A program made the position numbers and the translations under genes. The notes under the pieces were generated by a model that was not told the DNA's origin, ran no database searches, and saw only the letters and a list, made by a program, of their open reading frames with translations. A stretch of 64,000 bases of DNA from a virus (Duplodnaviria > Caudoviricetes): the IMG/VR virus record IMGVR_UViG_3300033075_001228. The stretch is one strand, 5' to 3'. Below, in pieces: positions 22,560-30,602 of the stretch. The first letter of the stretch is position 1, and each line of letters begins with the position of its first letter.

Positions 22560-23543
22560 GTGGCTGTCACAACTGTTTCAGACAAGATTGCGTTCATTGA
22601 GTCAGTCTTTGGCACTTGCAAGGTTGCCAGAAACAGCAAGAACGTAGAGGTCAGGTGCCCTGTATGCGCGCCTCGAGACCCGACAAAGAAAAAGCTTGCG
22701 ATACGCGTAGATGATGACAGGAATCATTGCTGGACGTGTGGCTGGCGTGCACACACGTTGGCGCCGTTGCTGAGAAAGTTCAGCTCGCCTGACAAGCTGA
22801 ACGAGTATCGAGCCAGGTTCATGTCTGATGATGAACGTAAGCGTTCGTTTAGGCTAGACGACAAGGAAGCTGAAAAAAAGCTGACGCTGCCGGGAGACTT
22901 TAGGATGCTAGCTCCTGGCTCGTGGGACCCAGACTCGTTAGCTGCGTATCGTTACCTGGTTGACAGGGGGCTTTCGTCGCGTGACATGTGGTTTTTTAAG
23001 GTGGGTGTCTCAGACGATCGAAGGTGGCATCGCCGCGTGATCGTGCCGTCGTTTGACAAAAACGGAGAGCTAAACTACTTTGTTGCTAGGGCGATTGACA
23101 GGCTGCGAAAGCCAAAGTACGACAATCCAGATCACGACAAACTCCCAGTCATCTTTAACGAGATCCACGTTGATTGGACCAAACGTTTGGTGATTTGCGA
23201 AGGGGTTTTTGACATGTTTAAGTGTGGCGACAACGTGGTGCCGCTGCTTGGCTCAGACCTTAACGAAAGATCTGCGTTGTTTAACTCGATTCTTGTCAAC
23301 GGCACGCCTGTGGCTGTGGCGCTTGACAGTGACATGTGGGAAACAAAAACGTTGCGCGCAGCAAAAAAGTTGGCTGAGTATGACATCGACGTAACGATCG
23401 TTGACACTAGGCAGTTTGGAGACCCTGGCTCAACGACCAAAGAGCAGTTTCAAATTGCTCTCTCTGGGGCCAAGGGCTTTGACTGGCGTTCGACCGTGCA
23501 GACGCGTTTGGGTCGTTCTTCACGTATCTCGTTGTCAATTTGA
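22560..23543 (+). CDS. DNA primase (Zn finger + TOPRIM)
   Basis: CPVC...HCWTC, RVIVPSF, YFVAR, KYDNP, ICEGVFD, ALDSD. Confidence 0.88.
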   Translation: MAVTTVSDKIAFIESVFGTCKVARNSKNVEVRCPVCAPRDPTKKKLAIRVDDDRNHCWTCGWRAHTLAPLLRKFSSPDKLNEYRARFMSDDERKRSFRLDDKEAEKKLTLPGDFRMLAPGSWDPDSLAAYRYLVDRGLSSRDMWFFKVGVSDDRRWHRRVIVPSFDKNGELNYFVARAIDRLRKPKYDNPDHDKLPVIFNEIHVDWTKRLVICEGVFDMFKCGDNVVPLLGSDLNERSALFNSILVNGTPVAVALDSDMWETKTLRAAKKLAEYDIDVTIVDTRQFGDPGSTTKEQFQIALSGAKGFDWRSTVQTRLGRSSRISLSI

Positions 23544-23612: not shown

Positions 23613-24617
23613 ATGAAGAAGCGAACGTCCATGCGTCCAAGCATCTCAGAAGCCAGGCTTCGAAAGATAGTGTACGAAGAGCTAGTGAGGGCTCAACTTG
23701 TCAACGAAGGGCTATGGGATGACGTTAAGGATGGTGCTCGTAAGCTATCAGCGTATGTAAGCAAGCAGTTTCAACAGGTTGCTGCAAAGTGGGCAAAGGC
23801 GATCACCGAACGGCTTGGCAAGATTGGAGAGATTCCAAACGAAGCTAAACAGATTTTGCAGGTTGTAAAGCAAGCCATGGCAGAGACCGGTGAATCGTTC
23901 AAGCTTGATGCTGGTCTAAAGGCTGCACAAGAGCTTGGAAAGTTGGGCTCTGATGGCGCGTTAGCAGTCGTGCAGCAGGACCTTGAGGGTCCCGTGCACG
24001 AAAAGGCAAAGAACGCCCAGGTCAAAGGTGAAGGGAAATACCTTCCAGGGATCTACGCTGTGTTGGCTGAAAACAGCTACGCAGCTCAGATGCCAAAGGA
24101 AAAAATCAATGAAGATCTCGGCGTAACAACCGTCTTGGGCGTAAGCCTTGCCATCATGGGAGGTCTTCCTATGTTGTTTAAGGGCTTGGAGAAATTGGCA
24201 CATGCGTTGGGCGCATCAGGAGCAGCTGCGCTTTTTGAAAAGGCTGAGCACGTGACGCATAGCTTTGAGCAGAAAACAGTTGACTTTGTGATGCCGTTTA
24301 AGCTAGCATATGCAGTGTACCTTGGCCTTTGGAAGATGGGCATCAAGCTGACGAAGGGCGAAGAGCCCCTGAATGAACTGGAGATTAAAGCCGAAGACGA
24401 AGGCAAGAAGGCCATGGCCCAGTGCAAAGGCTTGGTCTACAAGGTTCTGCTTATCTACTTTGCAATCCAGGGAATTGCTGGCGTTTTGAAGGCGGGAGCG
24501 TCGTTGCTCGGGTTTGTCGAGGGCACAGCCACCACCGTCAAGGGCATTGAGCTTGCCAGAGGAGCCGAGGAGATCGTGAAGCTTGTTAGGGCTGGCTCTG
24601 GCGGCATGGCTGTCTAA
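23613..24617 (+). CDS. Hypothetical protein with putative capsid-targeting leader and hydrophobic segments
   Basis: ISEARLRKIVYEEL..LVNE|G; hydrophobic stretches in the C-half; late-promoter motif upstream. Confidence 0.7.
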   Translation: MKKRTSMRPSISEARLRKIVYEELVRAQLVNEGLWDDVKDGARKLSAYVSKQFQQVAAKWAKAITERLGKIGEIPNEAKQILQVVKQAMAETGESFKLDAGLKAAQELGKLGSDGALAVVQQDLEGPVHEKAKNAQVKGEGKYLPGIYAVLAENSYAAQMPKEKINEDLGVTTVLGVSLAIMGGLPMLFKGLEKLAHALGASGAAALFEKAEHVTHSFEQKTVDFVMPFKLAYAVYLGLWKMGIKLTKGEEPLNELEIKAEDEGKKAMAQCKGLVYKVLLIYFAIQGIAGVLKAGASLLGFVEGTATTVKGIELARGAEEIVKLVRAGSGGMAV

Positions 24618-24653
24618 CGCTATCTCATGTGCGATAGAAACGTTTAAGCAGCT

Positions 24654-24682
24654 TAAACAGCATCGGTACGGTGCAGTACACT
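24654..24682 (+). promoter_or_regulatory. Sigma-70-like promoter
   Basis: TAAACA-N17-TACACT upstream of the nuclease gene. Confidence 0.5.
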
Positions 24683-24695
24683 GTTACAGTAGCCA

Positions 24696-25355
24696 GTGTT
24701 GAAAATCGCTCATATTGCTGACGTTCATTTTAGGGGTCTTAGCAGGCACAACGAGTACGTTCAGGTCTTTACCTCTTTTGCTTCGCAGGTAAAGAACCAA
24801 GGCATACAACACGTTTTTGTTGGGGGCGACATCTTTCACACAAAGACAACTGGTCTAAGCCCAGAATACATCGAGATCATGTCTTGGTGGCTGACGACCC
24901 TTTCAAAGGACGCCGAGCTGCACCTAACGTTAGGAAACCATGACGGTAACCTTGTCAACCTTGGAAGACAGGACGCTGTCACACCAATCGTGAAAGCGCT
25001 TAACAACCCACGTGTGCATCTCTACAAGGAGAGCGGCGTATACGAGTTTTCACCCGGATTCAACTGGTGTGTCTTTAGCCTGTTTGACGAGGAAGGCTGG
25101 TCTCGTGTCAAGCCAGTTCCAGGGAAAGTGAACATAGCTTGCTATCATGGGCCTGTGTTTGGTGCCCACACTGAATCAAATTGGTTGATCGAGGAAGGGT
25201 TGACCATTGAGCACTTTAAGGAGTATGACTTTGCTTTTCTAGGTGATATTCATCGTCTTCAGTTCCTTGATTACAGGGAGATAGAGCTAGTCATTGATGA
25301 AAATGACTTAGGCAGGTACCCAGGAGCAGTCGTTGTCCAAGAGGGAAGCGTTTAA
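24696..25355 (+). CDS. SbcD/Mre11/gp47-like nuclease, N-terminal part of a split gene
   Basis: HIADVH, GGDIFH, GNHD, CYHG, LGDIH; the following YPGS motif is absent. Confidence 0.88.
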   Translation: MLKIAHIADVHFRGLSRHNEYVQVFTSFASQVKNQGIQHVFVGGDIFHTKTTGLSPEYIEIMSWWLTTLSKDAELHLTLGNHDGNLVNLGRQDAVTPIVKALNNPRVHLYKESGVYEFSPGFNWCVFSLFDEEGWSRVKPVPGKVNIACYHGPVFGAHTESNWLIEEGLTIEHFKEYDFAFLGDIHRLQFLDYREIELVIDENDLGRYPGAVVVQEGSV

Positions 25356-25356
25356 C

Positions 25357-25668
25357 ATGGGTTGGCCGCAGTGCAGTATGGAAGGTTGTGACAACTGGCC
25401 TTCTGTTGGATACACGGGTGTTTGTTGTGAATGCATCAAAGATCCGAAGAAGGTAGAAAAAGCTGCGAATCAAATGGCTAAGAACGTTGCAGCCTGCACA
25501 AAGATAGAGCGAGAAGACCACATTCTTGTTTGTTGGTTAAGCAGGGAGCCACAAAAGTGCCTAGAGATGGTGCTGGAAGTTGTTCGCTCTGGAGAAACAG
25601 ACGTAAGAAAAGCAATGGATGTTGCGTGTCTTCAGTATTGGAGAACAATCAACACGGTGAAGCCTTGA
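25357..25668 (+). CDS. Cys-rich hypothetical protein inserted between the halves of the nuclease gene
   Basis: ATG 1 nt after the upstream TAA; CSMEGC..CCEC; TGA overlaps the downstream TTG. Confidence 0.7.
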   Translation: MGWPQCSMEGCDNWPSVGYTGVCCECIKDPKKVEKAANQMAKNVAACTKIEREDHILVCWLSREPQKCLEMVLEVVRSGETDVRKAMDVACLQYWRTINTVKP

Positions 25669-28241
25669 GCAAGAAAATTCGTATTCGTCTTAAGAGGGGT
25701 TGGATTGCTTACCCAGGCAGCACGGTTCAGCAAAACTATGCCGAAGACCAGGTGCATGGGTTTTTGACCTGGTCGATCAACTCTCGTAACGACTTTGACG
25801 TTAAGTTTTGTGAGCTTCCAAATCCGTGCCCGTTTGTGACGGTTCCGTGGGTAAGCAACGTTGATGCAACCCTTGACAATGTCAAGAAAACGTGTCCTCC
25901 AGGCGGAAGGTTTCGCGTCTACAGCACCGACCATATCTCGCAGCGAGAAATGATCGACTTGTCCTCTCGTTTGAAAGAAACGATGCAGGCTGTCGAGGTG
26001 ACATACAAGTCTGACAAACAGGTTAACCATGACGTTGTGGTTGCTGGCGCGACAACCCTAGCGAAGGGCGACCTTCGAAACACAGACGTGTTGGTCAAGC
26101 TGCTAAAAGAGCACAACGATTCAACAGCTGATGAATCAACGTGGGCAACAGTACAGGACTTGGTCAAGGGCTACGTGTCACGCTGCAGCCTTGATGATTC
26201 TGCCAGAAACACAACATGGTCTCTGCGACACCTCAAGTTTGACAACACGTTGGCATACGGAGAAGGCAACGTCATCAATTTTGAGAAGCTTAATGGCATC
26301 GTCGGCATCTTCGGTCCAAATCGTTCAGGCAAGTCGTCAATCGTTGGCACGATTATGTACGGGTTGTTTAACGGAACAGACAGAGGCTCGATCAAAAATC
26401 TACACGTGATCAACACTCGGAAACCGTACTGCTATTCACGAGCTGTCATCAACGTAAACGGCGTTGACTATGTGATTGAAAGGCAAACGGTGAAGATCGA
26501 GAACAAGCGCGGGCAGTTAAACTCTAGCACGGCGCTAAACGTTTTTCGAATGGAAAACGGTGAAGCGGTCGACCTTGCAGGCGAGCAGCGTCTTGACACC
26601 GAAAAGGTGATCAGAAAGTTGATTGGTAACGCAGATGACTTTTTGCTGACGTCGCTGTCAGCGCAGGACGAAATCAAGCTTTTCATCTCACACGGTTCAA
26701 CAAAACGAAAACAGATCCTCTCGCGTTTTCTGGACCTCGACGTCTTTGACCAGATGTATGACCTCGTAAAGAACGATCTCAACGTAACGAAGGCGGAGCT
26801 AAGGGTCTTGCCAGACCGCGACTGGGCCGCTGCTGACGCTGACGCACGTGAAAAGATCACGCTTTGTGACAACGAGATTGCGAAGAAAAATGCACAGGTG
26901 ATAGATGTTAACGACAGGCTGTCGACGTTAAAAAGGAAGGCTGAACAGCACCAAGGCTTTGCTGCTGTCACCCCAGAGCAGCTTGAAGCCCAGCGTTCTG
27001 TTGTCAAGGGTCTTGACAGCCAGGTAAACAATACGCTAAAGCAGCTTGCGGCTTGTGAAGAGAAGCTGGCTTCCCTTGTTGCTAAGTCACAAAAGATTGA
27101 AGGTCTTCAGAAAGAGTATGACGTTGATGATCTTAAGCGACGATTTGTGGCGTTTAGGGAGCTCGAGATGTCTGTCATTGCGCTTAGGCATGCCCATGAG
27201 CGTGAACAGGCTGAGCTTTTGCAACAGGAACGTTCGTTAAAGATCCTAGATGAAGTTCCGTGTGGTGACAGCTTTCCAACGTGCAAGTTTATCAAGAACG
27301 CACACCAGTCAAAGGGAAAGGTTGAACCGCAAAAGAAGAGGCTTGAAGAGGCGCAGGAAAATCTGCGTGCAGCAGAGGAAGCCTTAACAACGCTTAAGGA
27401 AGAAAACCTCGCAGAAAAGATAGAAAAGGCTGAGCTGCATGCTGGCGTTTATTTACGCCTTCAGATGGAGATTTCGCAAGTACGACTTGAGTTGGTAAAG
27501 CTGGACGCAAGCGCCAAGGACCTAAACGCGCAGCGTGTTCCTGCAAGACGCCAGCTAGAGATGCTTGAGCTCGCTGCCAAGAACTCTGAGAACGTAGAGC
27601 TTGTTGCGTTGAAGGCTGAGATCGATTCATTGCAAAATGACCTTAAGCGCCTTGATAGCGAAAAGCTGAATTTCGCCTCAGAACGAGGCAGAATTCAAGT
27701 TGTCCTTGACAGGCACACCCAAGAGCGCCAGCTTCGGGCTAAGACTGTCAGCAAGATGCAGGCGTTTGAGATGATTGCGTCATCCTTTTCAAGGAAAGGG
27801 ATACCTAGCGTGATCATCAGGTCTCAGCTTCCGGTCATCAACGCGGAGATAGCCAGGATCCTTAACGGCATGTTTGATTTTACCGTTGAGCTGGAAAATG
27901 ATGATGAGTCTGACGCCACAGAGGTTTACATCAACTACGGCGACAGCCGTCGCATCATTGAGCTCGGCTCTGGCATGGAAAAGATGGTTGCGTCAGTTGC
28001 CATTCGGGCTGCGTTGATCAACGTTTCATCGTTGCCAAAGACAAACATGTTCATCATTGATGAAGGATTTGGCGCACTTGACGACAGCGGCGTTGAGGCC
28101 TGTAACCGCCTGTTGGCTGCGTTGAAGCGGTATTTTAAGGCAGTCATTGTCATCACGCATGTTGAAGGCGTTAAAGACGCGGCAGACCTTGTGGTTGAGG
28201 TGACAAAGAACGAAAAGGACGCAAAGGTGACATATGTCTGA
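25665..28241 (+). CDS. C-terminal part of the SbcD nuclease fused to an SbcC/Rad50/gp46 ATPase
   Basis: WIAYPGSTVQQNYAE; Walker A GPNRSGKSS; coiled coils; SGMEK signature; IIDEGFGALD; ITH; TTG 25665 overlaps the upstream TGA (track start 25530). Confidence 0.88.
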   Translation: MSKKIRIRLKRGWIAYPGSTVQQNYAEDQVHGFLTWSINSRNDFDVKFCELPNPCPFVTVPWVSNVDATLDNVKKTCPPGGRFRVYSTDHISQREMIDLSSRLKETMQAVEVTYKSDKQVNHDVVVAGATTLAKGDLRNTDVLVKLLKEHNDSTADESTWATVQDLVKGYVSRCSLDDSARNTTWSLRHLKFDNTLAYGEGNVINFEKLNGIVGIFGPNRSGKSSIVGTIMYGLFNGTDRGSIKNLHVINTRKPYCYSRAVINVNGVDYVIERQTVKIENKRGQLNSSTALNVFRMENGEAVDLAGEQRLDTEKVIRKLIGNADDFLLTSLSAQDEIKLFISHGSTKRKQILSRFLDLDVFDQMYDLVKNDLNVTKAELRVLPDRDWAAADADAREKITLCDNEIAKKNAQVIDVNDRLSTLKRKAEQHQGFAAVTPEQLEAQRSVVKGLDSQVNNTLKQLAACEEKLASLVAKSQKIEGLQKEYDVDDLKRRFVAFRELEMSVIALRHAHEREQAELLQQERSLKILDEVPCGDSFPTCKFIKNAHQSKGKVEPQKKRLEEAQENLRAAEEALTTLKEENLAEKIEKAELHAGVYLRLQMEISQVRLELVKLDASAKDLNAQRVPARRQLEMLELAAKNSENVELVALKAEIDSLQNDLKRLDSEKLNFASERGRIQVVLDRHTQERQLRAKTVSKMQAFEMIASSFSRKGIPSVIIRSQLPVINAEIARILNGMFDFTVELENDDESDATEVYINYGDSRRIIELGSGMEKMVASVAIRAALINVSSLPKTNMFIIDEGFGALDDSGVEACNRLLAALKRYFKAVIVITHVEGVKDAADLVVEVTKNEKDAKVTYV

Positions 28242-28542
28242 GTGGCGTCCCTACTTACGCTCGCGGCTAATTTGTGAAATGCCGTCAGGCTTTTTTGTCA
28301 TCAAGCCTGACAATGTTGAGCATTCGTTGCCGTTAGGTTGCCCAGTCTGCGACAGGCTGTACAGGTCACAAGACGATGAAGCTTCTCATCGAGAGTTTTC
28401 GTGTTGCTATCTGTGCGCCCTCCAGTGGGCTCACCCTCGTCGGAAAGAGTGGCTTGCTGGTTGGAGGCCTTCTAGCGATGACGTAAAAGCTGTCGTTGCA
28501 AACAGGCCGATGATGTCAGTCATAATTGACGTAGGCAAATAA
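28234..28542 (+). CDS. Hypothetical protein with Zn-finger-like motifs
   Basis: CPVC ... CCYLC; overlaps the upstream gene. Confidence 0.65.
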   Translation: MSEWRPYLRSRLICEMPSGFFVIKPDNVEHSLPLGCPVCDRLYRSQDDEASHREFSCCYLCALQWAHPRRKEWLAGWRPSSDDVKAVVANRPMMSVIIDVGK

Positions 28543-28597
28543 ATGCATTTTTGACAGTCAGACGTCCGCGACCTAGTTAAGATATAACGAGGTTGTG

Positions 28598-28984
28598 ATG
28601 GCTGACGTTGATTTAAATGCATTAGGACAGGCGATTGACAGCACCTGGGGTAGGTCTTCTACCCCCAAGACTGCTTCATATTCTGTGAAGCTGACGATGC
28701 TTGCGCCTGACAGGCTGCAGCTGTCGTTTGCCGCGATCGTCAATTTTGCAAACGAAAAGCAGATGGTTGAGATGAAACGCGCCTATCAAGCAGAGGCTGA
28801 CGGCGTTGTTGCTGAGGTGATCAAGCGAGTCAAAGAGATCTACAAGGACCTGACAGGGTCTGCGCTAGCGTTGAAGCTGTCAAAAGAAAGCGTCAGCGAC
28901 TCTTTAGAGATCATCAACATGAACGCGCACAACGCCAAGCGGACTGCTTACTACAGGCGAAAGGCTGTGGTAGAGGTGGGCTGA
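28598..28984 (+). CDS. Hypothetical protein upstream of terminase
   Basis: GAGG SD and late motif upstream. Confidence 0.7.
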   Translation: MADVDLNALGQAIDSTWGRSSTPKTASYSVKLTMLAPDRLQLSFAAIVNFANEKQMVEMKRAYQAEADGVVAEVIKRVKEIYKDLTGSALALKLSKESVSDSLEIINMNAHNAKRTAYYRRKAVVEVG

Positions 28985-28985
28985 C

Positions 28986-30602
28986 ATGGGCAGCTCCACG
29001 TTTAACAGAGAAGATCAGATAAAGGAGATCGTTCGTTGCGGCAAGGACCCTGTCTACTTTATGAAGCGGTACGTGAGGATCCAGCACCCGACGCGCGGCA
29101 CGATCCCGTTTGACACATACCCATTTCAGGATGATTGTGTAGCAGCGTTTCAGGCTCACAGGTTAAACATAGTCTTAAAGTCACGTCAGCTAGGGTTGTC
29201 GACGGTTGGCTCAGCGTATGCTGTTTGGATGGCCATCTTCCAGAAGGACAAGAACATCTTGGTCATTGCAACCAAGCTGTCGACTGCCCAAAACTTCATC
29301 AAAAAATGCCAGGTCATCCTGCAAAACTTGCCCAAGTGGCTGCTGCTCCCGAGGTTTGAACCAAGCAAGCAGCAGATAAGCTTTAGCAATGGGTCGCAGA
29401 TCAAAGCAATCCCAACCTCTGACGACGCCGGCCGTTCCGAAGCGTTGTCGCTTCTCATCATTGATGAGGCAGCGTTCATTCGTGACTTTGATGAAATTTG
29501 GGCCGGCCTGTCGCCGACATTTTCCACGGGTGGTAGGGCAATCATCATGTCCACACCAAACGGCGTCGGTGGGCAGTATTACAAGCTGTGGACAGAGGCT
29601 GAGCTAGGACAAAACGGGTTTAACCCGATCAGGATCATGTGGCACCAACACCCTGAGCACGATCAGGAGTGGTTTGACAAGGAAACACGAAATCTCCCTA
29701 AGAAGAAAATAAGCCAGGAGTATTTGTGCGATTTCGTTGCTTCTGGCGACACATTTTTGCAGCCATCAGAGCTAGAGTCCCTTCGGAACAGCATCCAACA
29801 GCCGATGGAACGCCTTGGCGTCAAAAGGGAGATTTGGGTGTGGTCGCATCCAATCGTTGGGCACCAGTATGTCATATCAGCAGACGTGTCTCGCGGCGAT
29901 GCTCGTGACTTTTCAGCCTTTCACGTCATTGACGTGGACATGCGTGAGGTAGCAGCTGAGTACATGGGAAAGCTCCCACCGGAAAAGCTAGCTGACCTGC
30001 TGTTTGAGTGGGGGAAAAAGTACAATGATGCGCTCATCATCCCTGAGAACAACACGTTTGGTTACTTCGTAAACACCAAGCTTAGGGACACGGGGTACAA
30101 ACGGCTCTATTACCAGAACTGTAAAGGAGATCCGTTTACCTATATCCCCACAGATCCAGAAGAGCTGCCAGGGTTTCAAACAAATCCCAAGTCACGCGTG
30201 CAGGTGTTGACGAAGCTAGAGGAGATGATACGAAACGGCGCGCTTAAGACGTATTCTCAAAGGCTGTATGACCAGCTTCAGGCGTTTGTGTGGCAAGGCA
30301 ACAAGCCGATGGCATTGAAGGACAGCTATGACGACCTTGTCATCAGCCTTGCAATCGGCACATGGCTGCTTGAGGGTGCAAACGGCGCAAACCAGCAGCA
30401 ACAAAACATGGCATATGCCATGTTGAAGGCGACCGGGGTCTCGAGGCGTGACCAGTCGCAGATGCCCGGAGACATCATGGCTGCGCAGCCGCTAGTAAAC
30501 CCGCAGATCAGGGGAGTCAACCCACGAACGCTCCATAGGCCGCAGCACGCCTCCCAGGTGAGGTCAGCAGATCATTCCAACTTTGACTGGTTGTTCAGGT
30601 GA
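28986..30602 (+). CDS. Terminase large subunit (gp17-like)
   Basis: DPVYF, KSRQLGLST, IIDEAAF, STPNG, ISADVSRG, ENN, YDDLVIS. Confidence 0.95.
   Translation: MGSSTFNREDQIKEIVRCGKDPVYFMKRYVRIQHPTRGTIPFDTYPFQDDCVAAFQAHRLNIVLKSRQLGLSTVGSAYAVWMAIFQKDKNILVIATKLSTAQNFIKKCQVILQNLPKWLLLPRFEPSKQQISFSNGSQIKAIPTSDDAGRSEALSLLIIDEAAFIRDFDEIWAGLSPTFSTGGRAIIMSTPNGVGGQYYKLWTEAELGQNGFNPIRIMWHQHPEHDQEWFDKETRNLPKKKISQEYLCDFVASGDTFLQPSELESLRNSIQQPMERLGVKREIWVWSHPIVGHQYVISADVSRGDARDFSAFHVIDVDMREVAAEYMGKLPPEKLADLLFEWGKKYNDALIIPENNTFGYFVNTKLRDTGYKRLYYQNCKGDPFTYIPTDPEELPGFQTNPKSRVQVLTKLEEMIRNGALKTYSQRLYDQLQAFVWQGNKPMALKDSYDDLVISLAIGTWLLEGANGANQQQQNMAYAMLKATGVSRRDQSQMPGDIMAAQPLVNPQIRGVNPRTLHRPQHASQVRSADHSNFDWLFR

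Follow-up and report, generated by a model that had tools for sequence, protein, structure and literature searches.

The window, that is, the whole stretch of 64,000 nt of viral DNA that we analysed, carries on its plus strand three tightly coupled genes, which encode the N-terminal half of an Mre11/SbcD nuclease (N-half), a 103-aa Cys-rich ORF, and the remainder of Mre11 in fusion with Rad50/SbcC (C-half). The N-half gene (24696-25355, +) encodes 219 aa, from a GTG start to a TAA stop (25353-25355), and contains phosphoesterase motifs I-V, which comprise every metal-binding motif: IADVH (24714-24728), GGDIFH (24822-24839), GNHD (24933-24944), CYHG (25140-25151) and GDIH (25242-25253; residues 183-186), all on the plus strand. 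The protein matched Pfam PF00149 (Metallophos) with an E-value of 4e-9 and 37.6 bits against a cutoff of 21.5, an SbcD-like PHROG family (4e-13) and SbcD/Mre11 structures of the PDB (E-values from 5e-6 to 1e-4). Residues D9, H11, D45, H48, N81, H82, H151, D184 and H186 were invariant among 32 homologues, and the mean column identity of these 32 N-halves was 74%. After GDIH the N-half ends in an acidic tail, EIELVIDENDLGRYPGAVVVQEGSV (25278-25352, +), 25 aa long with a net charge of -4 and missing in unsplit relatives. The Mre11 nuclease domain is not encoded here as a single polypeptide: everything from the YPGS strand onward lies, beyond the TAA, in the next gene but one.

This latter gene (25665-28241, +) encodes 858 aa from a TTG at position 25665, a start that we chose by homology; gene callers used the GTG at 25626 (871 aa, P0004). 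The protein opens with (M)SKKIRIRLKRGWIAYPGSTVQQNYAE, and its basic N-terminal head, (M)SKKIRIRLKRG (25665-25700, +; net charge +6), is also missing in unsplit relatives; the mean column identity of 40 such heads was 66%. It is followed by the YPGS motif (25710-25721, +), the strand that in unsplit relatives comes right after GDIH-x(11-20). We obtained matches of the C-half to Pfam SMC_N (PF02463; 4e-11, 43.1 bits against a cutoff of 40), AAA_23 and SbcC_Walker_B, to an SbcC-like PHROG family (4e-62) and to a Rad50 structure of the PDB (2e-10). The features of a Rad50/SbcC ABC ATPase are present: Walker A (26313-26339, +), the signature in the variant form GSGMEK (27966-27983, +), Walker B (28047-28073, +) with the D-loop, the H-loop, and a long coiled coil in between, at whose apex there is no CxxC zinc hook and the sequence reads PCGDSFPTC (C-x6-C, 27258-27284, +). 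The first-pass annotation had described the locus as a naturally split Mre11/SbcD with the second half fused to Rad50, in which the phosphoesterase stops shortly after GDIH and the YPGS motif begins the ATPase ORF. All of this is confirmed.

The distance from the N-half stop to the C-half start is 309 nt, so that the spacing previously reported is real, its length of 310 nt needing correction by one nucleotide. Both halves are in the same frame, in which the gap has four stops. The 103-aa Cys-rich ORF (25357-25668, +), hereafter the cargo ORF, has its ATG 1 nt past the TAA of the N-half, and its TGA overlaps the TTG of the C-half (TTGA, 25665-25668), an arrangement from which it may be translationally coupled at both ends. 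The same overlap of the inserted gene with the downstream half was found in four relatives (L147, L148, L092 and L100), and in two of them (L147 and L148) homologues of the cargo protein, 51-60% identical to it, lie between the same two halves. The scan for promoters and terminators gave none between the halves.

At its N-terminus the cargo protein carries a CX4C-X11-CX2C motif, and three helices are predicted for it; it may be a zinc-knuckle-like small phage protein. It matched no Pfam or PHROG family, all its Atlas feature matches were below 0.9, and its fold model (pLDDT 74) had no PDB match at an E-value < = 0.001 and no Atlas match with TM > = 0.5, so that we dropped the idea of a known fold among the structures searched. 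We also dropped the ideas that it is an endonuclease remnant (hhalign against the L092 endonuclease gave a probability of 0.1%) and that the Cys4 motif is an adaptor specific to the gap, given that remote members of the family (P0134, P0136 and P0141) sit among small phage ORFs arranged in arrays, with no Mre11 gene near. As to homing endonucleases, the gap of the window contains neither one nor a recognisable remnant, and the 103-aa ORF has no nuclease similarity. The first-pass annotation had seen no recognisable endonuclease between the halves, which holds for the window and does not hold for the family, because in two relatives one is present at the exact site. In these (L092 and L100) the gap is occupied by ORFs of 301 and 307 aa that gave matches to PHROG homing-endonuclease families (6e-13 and 6e-10) and a weak one to Pfam Vsr, and that overlap both flanking genes. 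The endonuclease locus L092 and the endonuclease-free locus L095 share 83% DNA identity on both flanks, and the gap of L096 holds an ORF of 72 aa. The endonucleases of L092 and L100 are as far apart from each other (56%) as are their host genes (56-64%); these two endonucleases are therefore possibly long-term residents or later arrivals, and not the original cause of the break.

The homologue search gave approximately 1,170 homologues. We found the same break in more than 100 homologue clusters from many samples, and the identical arrangement in 4 contigs, including two from different runs (SRR7164319 and SRR32380200). Against GenBank phages, megablast gave zero matches, and the best tblastn matches, which were to a Microcystis phage and to uncultured huge phages, reached 26-30% identity; no cultured relative was found. 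More than 100 C-half homologues, 857-876 aa in length, open with M[ST]K.[RK]I[RK].K[KR][PG]W..YPGS. Precisely, in 35 independent split loci the N-half tail had a mean charge of -5.4 (range -3 to -8) and the C-half head a mean charge of +5.0 (range +2 to +8), the tail pattern [VI]E[LI].ID[ED].[DE]L..YPGAEV.. being conserved across them. The acidic end of the N-half and the basic start of the C-half, both pointed out in the first-pass annotation, are hence a property of all these loci, and because the charges are so consistent among independent loci, the opposite-charge pattern is not chance. As a separate observation, the YPGA of the tail resembles the YPGS strand after the head, of which it is possibly a duplicate; the position of this motif is not conserved in P0095, a protein described below.

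In the more distant relatives the gene is one ORF of about 1050-1064 aa, and the break point shows only a short hairpin, GDIH..FLGYRDGKPWIGYPG. In these unsplit loci (L005-L066 and L103-L146) an N-terminal Mre11-like and a C-terminal Rad50-like part form one chain, so that the search for the unsplit gene in relatives, proposed beforehand as a check, gave a positive result. The insert was absent from all of the approximately 85 unsplit outgroup loci. One unsplit protein does contain it: P0095 (locus L151) has 1076 aa with a continuous 33-aa insert, which aligns without gaps to the joined tail and head of L091 (z 7.3), a score reached by 0 of 500 shuffles. We set aside a single-sequence AlphaFold model of P0095:1-440, its pLDDT being 36. 

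For the phylogeny we used a maximum likelihood tree of 45 rows, from which the tail-stop-start-head module was left out. The distribution of the two forms on it is patchy: the split/fused label needs 5 changes, 4 of them imposed by starred branches. The split L126 falls inside a fused clade (98*), and its DNA flanks match fused loci only; L097 and L151 are fused, yet nested among split forms. P0095/L151 has this nested position both in a larger tree (0.97) and within the 98* set of the 45-row tree, for which reason it is probably a secondary re-fusion. The deep nodes of the larger tree are weakly supported (0.57-0.70) and, consequently, the direction of the split/fused changes is not fixed.

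We considered whether the two ORFs could still yield one chain, through intron splicing, ribosomal bypass, read-through, frameshift or protein trans-splicing. The halves do share a frame in the window, L001, L002 and L067, and in L001 and L002 a TGA followed by a GTG is their sole separation. Against a joined chain, the 309-nt gap is interrupted by the four in-frame stops and codes for a conserved protein, and the Rfam scan of positions 24000-29000 (E < = 1) gave zero matches, while the folding of 25300-25700 was not above shuffles (MFE z 0.00); on these two results we dropped a group I or group II intron, and the halves of relatives directly adjoin or overlap each other. The type of junction varies among the relatives, and one recoding device would not account for all of them: there is a spacing of 0-1 nt, overlaps of 1-14 nt in another frame, spacers of 16-42 nt or inserts of 0.2-0.9 kb, and a 4-nt overlap of start and stop was seen in 16 of the 35 split loci. 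Split intein features were equally absent from the window, as the first-pass annotation had stated, since there is no intein Pfam domain, no HINT block and no +1 nucleophile, the residue after the head being Trp or Tyr (Trp in the window) and not Cys, Ser or Thr. Moreover, a HINT fold would seem to need more than the 25 residues of the tail and the 12 of the head. A joined product is, in our opinion, very improbable. We give slightly less credit still to a decaying pseudogene or an assembly artefact, suggested by the unusual architecture alone and already refuted by the conservation of the break and of the residues: the catalytic residues are all invariant, the mean column identities of N-halves and heads are 74% and 66%, and the break recurs in more than 100 clusters and in identical form in contigs of different runs. 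As far as can be judged from sequence, then, neither splicing nor an intein nor an assembly artefact, the last a point on which the first-pass annotation depended, is the cause.

The first-pass annotation had also proposed that the halves re-dock non-covalently, and had suggested a joint structure prediction as a check. The two chains were placed together with an ipSAE of 0.91 in 3 of 3 runs (best control 0.00), on alignments that we supplied, a score that may mirror the memory that the model has of the single-chain Mre11 fold. In the benchmark of the ipSAE mark, 58 of 80 solved complexes and 2 of 110 mismatched pairs attained it. The partner had a pLDDT of at least 72, and at least 87% of the contacts agreed between runs. 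The predicted interface includes both tail and head (N-half residues 195-203, 205, 208 and 210-217; C-half residues 2-21), with predicted contacts of residues 179-182 and 188-192 of chain 1 with residues 13-16 of chain 2. In the model, the score shows that the halves complete one fold and says nothing on the need for the tails. The re-docking is to this extent upheld, as a prediction, and we infer from the modelled interface that the chains would dock via their tails.

Taken as a whole, we consider it probable that the locus is a genuine fractured gene, a split single-chain Mre11-Rad50 with co-folding halves and an origin in an endonuclease cassette. The ancestor would have been a single-chain phage Mre11-Rad50 (SbcD-SbcC fusion). 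One clade would then have gained, in the beta-hairpin between GDIH and YPGS, a module of about 35 codons consisting of acidic tail, stop, start and basic head; as the module carries a stop and a start within this hairpin, the nuclease fold would be built from two polypeptides. The N-half (219 aa) would bring all the metal ligands and the second chain the other core strands, the capping region and the complete Rad50 ATPase, and the two would co-fold into one phosphoesterase domain. The acidic EIELVID and the basic KIRIRLK may form an antiparallel pair, by which the hairpin is lengthened and the halves are clasped, and translation of the downstream gene would be coupled to the stop before it. 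The most likely source of the break, and of its spread, is a free-standing cassette with a Vsr-like homing endonuclease, which some relatives still have in the gap; most lineages would have lost the endonuclease, so that the halves abut, and in the lineage of the window the gap would now be occupied by the 103-aa Cys-rich phage gene, which is unrelated to the endonuclease and would be coupled on either side.

The order of events could have been the opposite. A fused Mre11-Rad50 may have evolved a three-stranded mini-domain in the GDIH-YPGS hairpin, and a point mutation or an indel may then have put a stop and a start in a turn, endonucleases and cargo settling later in the gap because it was a harmless landing site beside conserved target DNA. 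The gapless alignment of the P0095/L151 insert with the tail and head of L091 is in favour of this order, as are L001 and L002, in which one substitution at the TGA-GTG junction could switch between states, and the unrelated nature of what the gap contains (endonuclease, 103-aa ORF, 72-aa ORF of L096). However, P0095/L151 looks re-fused given its nested position, none of the approximately 85 unsplit outgroup loci has the insert, L126 shows the arrival of the module, as a unit, in a fused backbone, and according to the published model it is the endonuclease element that, on invading, supplies the stop and the start. We regard the insert as the first step as unlikely. In fact, the unsplit outgroups lack the insert and the sole unsplit form in which the insert is continuous lies within the split ones, so that the tails more likely arrived with, or after, the homing-endonuclease cassette than as a pre-existing domain later broken. 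Of the first-pass suggestion that the gene was broken inside a small inserted domain, the insertion relative to unsplit relatives therefore stands, and the order of domain before break does not.

A further reading, combining several of these elements, is speculative and in our view rather improbable. The gap would be a slot in which ordinary phage cargo replaces the endonuclease, the Cys4 protein would be tied to the enzyme (through TTGA-dependent translation of the Rad50 chain, or by binding or modulating the nuclease), and the tail-stop-start-head module would be a laterally transferable heterodimerising cassette, as in L126, reusable as a split-protein clasp. Under the preferred explanation, a fractured gene of endonuclease origin, the locus would be a richly sampled case in which a selfish endonuclease breaks an essential enzyme gene for good and short complementary tails make the break harmless. 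Its states can be seen side by side: unsplit genes, split genes that have the endonuclease, no endonuclease or other cargo, and an unsplit gene that has the insert in one piece (probably re-fused). The family could also supply small natural clasp peptides.

With the class of fractured genes the window shares one domain spread over two adjacent ORFs of the same strand, extra residues at the break and an inserted gene overlapping the downstream start (TTGA, 25665-25668); the endonuclease between the halves is found in L092 and L100, not in the window. The passages of Dassa et al. 2009 (PMC2677866) on an SbcD-like locus describe an intein-less fractured gene of two adjacent ORFs, with 25 extra C-terminal residues upstream and 9 extra N-terminal residues downstream between consecutive conserved motifs, and a Vsr-like homing endonuclease between the halves whose 3' end overlaps the downstream start. 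Compared by this description, the window is alike in its tail of 25 aa and head of about 11-12 aa, and L092 and L100 in a Vsr-like gene with the same overlaps; the window differs in that its gap holds the 103-aa Cys-rich gene and no endonuclease. These passages concern one locus and SbcD-like halves only, Rad50 and SbcC being absent from the main text. The novelty of the break had thus been overrated in the first-pass annotation, this SbcD-like break with 25 and 9 extra residues having been in print, in the passages cited, since 2009. The split arrangement is already known and reveals no new mechanism, and only the cargo gene is a local novelty. The split-intein fractured genes described in passages of the same work share the layout of N-part, free-standing endonuclease and C-part; unlike them, the window has no intein blocks and, consequently, its halves are not ligated.

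The analogy with NrdA of phage Aeh1 (nrdA-a/mobE/nrdA-b; Crona et al. 2011, Nucleic Acids Res 39:1381, PMC3045599), drawn in the first-pass annotation, is apt. There, an essential enzyme is cut by a free-standing homing endonuclease, the tails at the break are unique, of opposite charge (pI 10.4 and 3.8) and essential for activity, and the downstream gene overlaps the inserted gene, as in the window. The enzyme is a different one, mobE is of HNH type whereas the endonuclease of the relatives of the window is Vsr-like, and the charges of the Aeh1 tails, basic upstream and acidic downstream, are the reverse of those of the window. The Aeh1 tails are unneeded for the binding of half to half and are needed for a dimer of heterodimers, whereas those of the window would, by the prediction, lengthen a native hairpin inside a single domain; since the Aeh1 tails serve a higher-order assembly, the tails of the window could have another role. 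Owing to its range of states, the family would be a good natural test system for the 'tails as assembly domains' of Crona et al. The T4 topoisomerase gp39/gp60, split by mobA, is similar as an endonuclease-associated split with tails and different in its enzyme; the passages on it in PMC3045599 report tail-like extensions with a similar charge distribution and a speculative tail role. Lastly, single-chain Mre11/Rad50 fusions are abundant in aquatic viral metagenomes (Yoshida, Claverie and Ogata 2011, Virol J 8:427; PMC3175470) and, unlike them, the gene of the window is cut again inside the nuclease domain, which leaves the nuclease in two chains and the fusion junction kept.

The locus has phage-like surroundings, a primase gene (22560-23543) and a large terminase gene (28986-30602), and consists of three genes packed end to end on the + strand. 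The first (24696-25355; GTG start, TAA stop, 219 aa) encodes the N-half, a calcineurin-like phosphoesterase (PF00149, E 4e-9) that also matches the PHROG SbcD-like family and solved SbcD/Mre11 chains; motifs I to V are present, the last being GDIH (residues 183-186), and beyond them the protein is extended by an acidic tail of 25 residues. The second, hereafter the cargo (25357-25668), has its ATG 1 base past the N-half TAA and encodes a Cys-rich product of 103 aa. Homology places the start of the third gene, which encodes the C-half, at TTG 25665, overlapping the cargo TGA as TTGA. The C-half opens with a basic head, SKKIRIRLKRG, followed by WIAYPGSTVQQNYAE, the stretch that unsplit relatives have after GDIH; some 190 residues further on, a complete Rad50/SbcC ATPase follows (SMC_N, E 4e-11; PHROG SbcC-like, 4e-62; PDB Rad50, 2e-10). 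Gene callers had started this gene at GTG 25626 (871 aa, P0004), which would give a 43-nt overlap with the cargo; comparison with over 100 homologous relatives speaks for TTG 25665. The first-pass annotation had thus described the locus correctly except in trivial details, namely that the gap is 309 nt instead of 310 and that the codon for the first C-half residue is TTG.

The Rad50 part has two unusual motifs: C-x6-C (PCGDSFPTC, 27258-27284) at the apex in place of the usual CxxC zinc hook, and GSGMEK (27966-27983) in place of the ABC signature LSGGE/Q. Both variants are kept in the family consensus and in the inspected relatives (e.g. DDVPCGD.FPTCKFIKDA in loci L092, L097 and L100).

Among the best homologues of the downstream protein, more than 100 have a length of 857-876 aa and an N-terminus that reads M[ST]K.[RK]I[RK].K[KR][PG]W..YPGS. 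We compared tails and heads in the 35 loci in which both halves were readable. In all of them the upstream protein ended in [VI]E[LI].ID[ED].[DE]L..YPGAEV.., with a tail net charge between -3 and -8 (mean -5.4), and the head that opened the downstream protein had a charge of +2 to +8 (mean +5.0); the charge pattern noticed in the window is hence a recurrent one. A 4-nt overlap between start codon and upstream stop was seen in 16 of these 35 loci, and the catalytic residues of the N-half were invariant across homologues. The two-gene arrangement is conserved and selected.

We considered whether the halves could be joined by splicing or recoding, or separated by an assembly error. The data speak against both explanations. 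The region 24000-29000 gave no Rfam match even at E<=1, the gap RNA folded at the level of shuffled sequence (z 0.00), and four stops lie within the gap in the reading frame common to both halves; the earlier remark that intein motifs are lacking agrees with a Pfam search of the locus, which detected no intein domain. The identical locus occurs in four contigs, the two places displayed being from different sequencing runs, and the same break recurs across a large family.

In most split relatives the gap is empty, and short spacers separate the halves in L086, L118 and L126. In L092 and L100, the gap holds ORFs of 301 and 307 aa, each overlapping both flanking genes. Their PHROG matches are homing-endonuclease families (6e-13 and 6e-10), and they have a weak match to Pfam Vsr. 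L092 has 83% DNA identity in both flanks with its endonuclease-free relative L095, and the segment between these flanks measures 941 nt in the former vs 52 nt in the latter; its boundaries fall within the codons for tail and head. The two endonucleases have diverged from each other (56%) as much as their host genes (56-64%), therefore they have probably long been associated with the site; they are a possible cause of the first break.

Other ORFs were observed in or near such loci. L096:2400-2618 is an unrelated 72-aa gap ORF; its product shows a CxxC...HxxC pattern and matches nothing in Pfam or PHROG. The Mre11-Rad50 gene of L097 is unsplit, with a backbone closest to split forms; immediately upstream, and running into its start, is a GIY-YIG homing-endonuclease gene (PF01541, E 1.6e-7; L097:515-1282). 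In syntenic relatives, small ORFs of 130-135 aa (L147:1533-1925, L148:2003-2410 and L151:943-1347), 3-4 genes upstream of the Mre11 N-half, match the TnsA-like N-terminal Pfam family (Tn7, endonuclease-fold); that of L151, the window's nearest relative, also matches DUF7487, a family weakly matched by the L092 gap endonuclease. The L151 portal gene, downstream of the terminase, has precomputed Intein_splicing matches (L151:9026-9231).

The cargo showed no family, fold or endonuclease similarity in Pfam, PHROG, structure and endonuclease comparisons. Its six close cluster representatives (49-100% identity, the 100% one being the cargo itself) have 36 invariant positions, which include C6, C11, C23 and C26 (CX4C-X11-CX2C) and a helical C-terminal part, and in L147 (56%) and L148 (49%) a homologue likewise separates the N-half from the C-half, the gene overlaps being those seen in the window. 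When 1.84 billion representatives were searched exhaustively with a profile, only 15 proteins were returned, several of which have only the N-terminal 45-residue motif in common; where the context was readable (P0134, P0136 and P0141), they were packed closely among other small phage ORFs, with no adjoining Mre11 gene. We read the cargo as an ordinary small phage gene in a former endonuclease slot, where the overlap of its stop with the downstream start may be part of what retains it. The N-terminal motif, MGWP.C..GC.NWP..G.TG.C..CI.DP..V, is an undescribed mini-domain; it also heads a small, phage-only set of proteins of 92-334 aa with unrelated C-terminal parts (P0136, P0140, P0139 and P0141; loci L152 and L155), encoded in arrays of small overlapping ORFs.

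A search for the unsplit gene, proposed with the original observation, found it in more distant relatives as single ORFs of about 1050-1064 aa, in L005-L066 (identity <=45% when the entire downstream protein is compared) and L103-L146 (45-51% across the first 230 residues of that protein). Single-chain Mre11/Rad50 fusions are also known in Mimivirus and aquatic viral metagenomes (PMC3175470). In the unsplit relatives only a short hairpin lies between GDIH and YPGS (e.g. GDIHKQQFLGYRDGKPWIGYPGT), so the split clade has about 35 extra codons, namely tail, stop, start and head. To map the split we used a 45-row maximum-likelihood tree of both halves, leaving out the module's own columns. The split/fused label required five changes, of which at least four were forced by well-supported branches. 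L126 is split, with a typical acidic tail and basic head, yet is nested (98) in an unsplit freshwater clade, to whose members it is 53-97% identical over its whole length and >=80% identical in about half of the 60-residue windows. Its DNA flanks (71-77% identity) match unsplit loci only, while a 156-nt module (L126:3896-4051), with a 42-nt spacer left between stop and start, is unmatched and, by this comparison, looks laterally acquired. Conversely, L097 and L151 are unsplit yet nested among split forms. So patchy a distribution is what one would expect of a mobile cassette that homing inserts and recombination removes.

The first-pass annotation had proposed that a mini-domain was inserted first and broken afterwards, an order that we kept as a rival but consider unlikely. 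Its best evidence is P0095, encoded in L151 in synteny with the window, which is an unsplit chain of 1076 aa with a continuous 33-residue insert; this gave a gapless alignment with the joined tail and head of L091 (z 7.3, a score reached by 0 of 500 shuffles). P0095 is nonetheless the window's nearest neighbour in the tree (support 86) and is placed inside the split clade. Nothing but TGA-GTG lies between the in-frame halves of L001 and L002, therefore one substitution could re-fuse them. We thus read P0095 as a secondary re-fusion.

As suggested with the original observation, the two chains were predicted together; the N-half was modelled with the first 190 residues of the downstream protein, using a separate alignment for each chain. 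The complex had an ipSAE of 0.91 in three of three runs, vs 0.00 for the best of three controls (58 of 80 solved complexes attain the ipSAE mark, as do 2 of 110 mismatched pairs), with partner pLDDT >=72 and >=87% contact agreement between runs. The highest-confidence predicted contacts were those of a single Mre11 fold: downstream residues 33-38 paired with N-half residues 4-7, which form its first strand, and 13-16 with N-half residues 179-182 and 188-192. Also within the predicted interface were all of the head (2-12) and the greater part of the tail (195-203, 205, 208 and 210-217). If the register L191-I14/D192-W13 were extended outward, which is our own step and not tool output, E195, E197 and D201 would face K10, R8 and K4, in a longer antiparallel hairpin with cross-strand salt bridges. 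The high score may reflect the model's memory of solved Mre11 structures, because the halves belong to one well-known fold; a second caveat is that we supplied the alignments ourselves. As modelled, the prediction shows two chains completing one domain with tail and head at their interface, and its score is silent on the need for the tails.

The original observation is therefore confirmed and its interpretation supported in part. The arrangement is already published. In Dassa et al. 2009 (PMC2677866), intein-less coding regions were searched for internal Vsr-like genes, and an SbcD-like fractured locus is described with 25 extra C-terminal residues in the upstream ORF and 9 extra N-terminal residues in the downstream one, placed between consecutive conserved motifs, and an endonuclease overlapping the downstream start, the same arrangement as in the window. 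In the split NrdA of phage Aeh1, mobE insertion created oppositely charged tails that are essential for activity, yet dispensable for binding between the halves (Crona et al. 2011, PMC3045599), and similar tails were predicted in other fragmented genes, e.g. T4 gp39/gp60 (PMC3045599). The window's split is a further instance of this published arrangement, to which it adds another type of cargo and a large comparative set, in which the split outlasts endonuclease loss, moves between backbones and was probably re-fused at least once.
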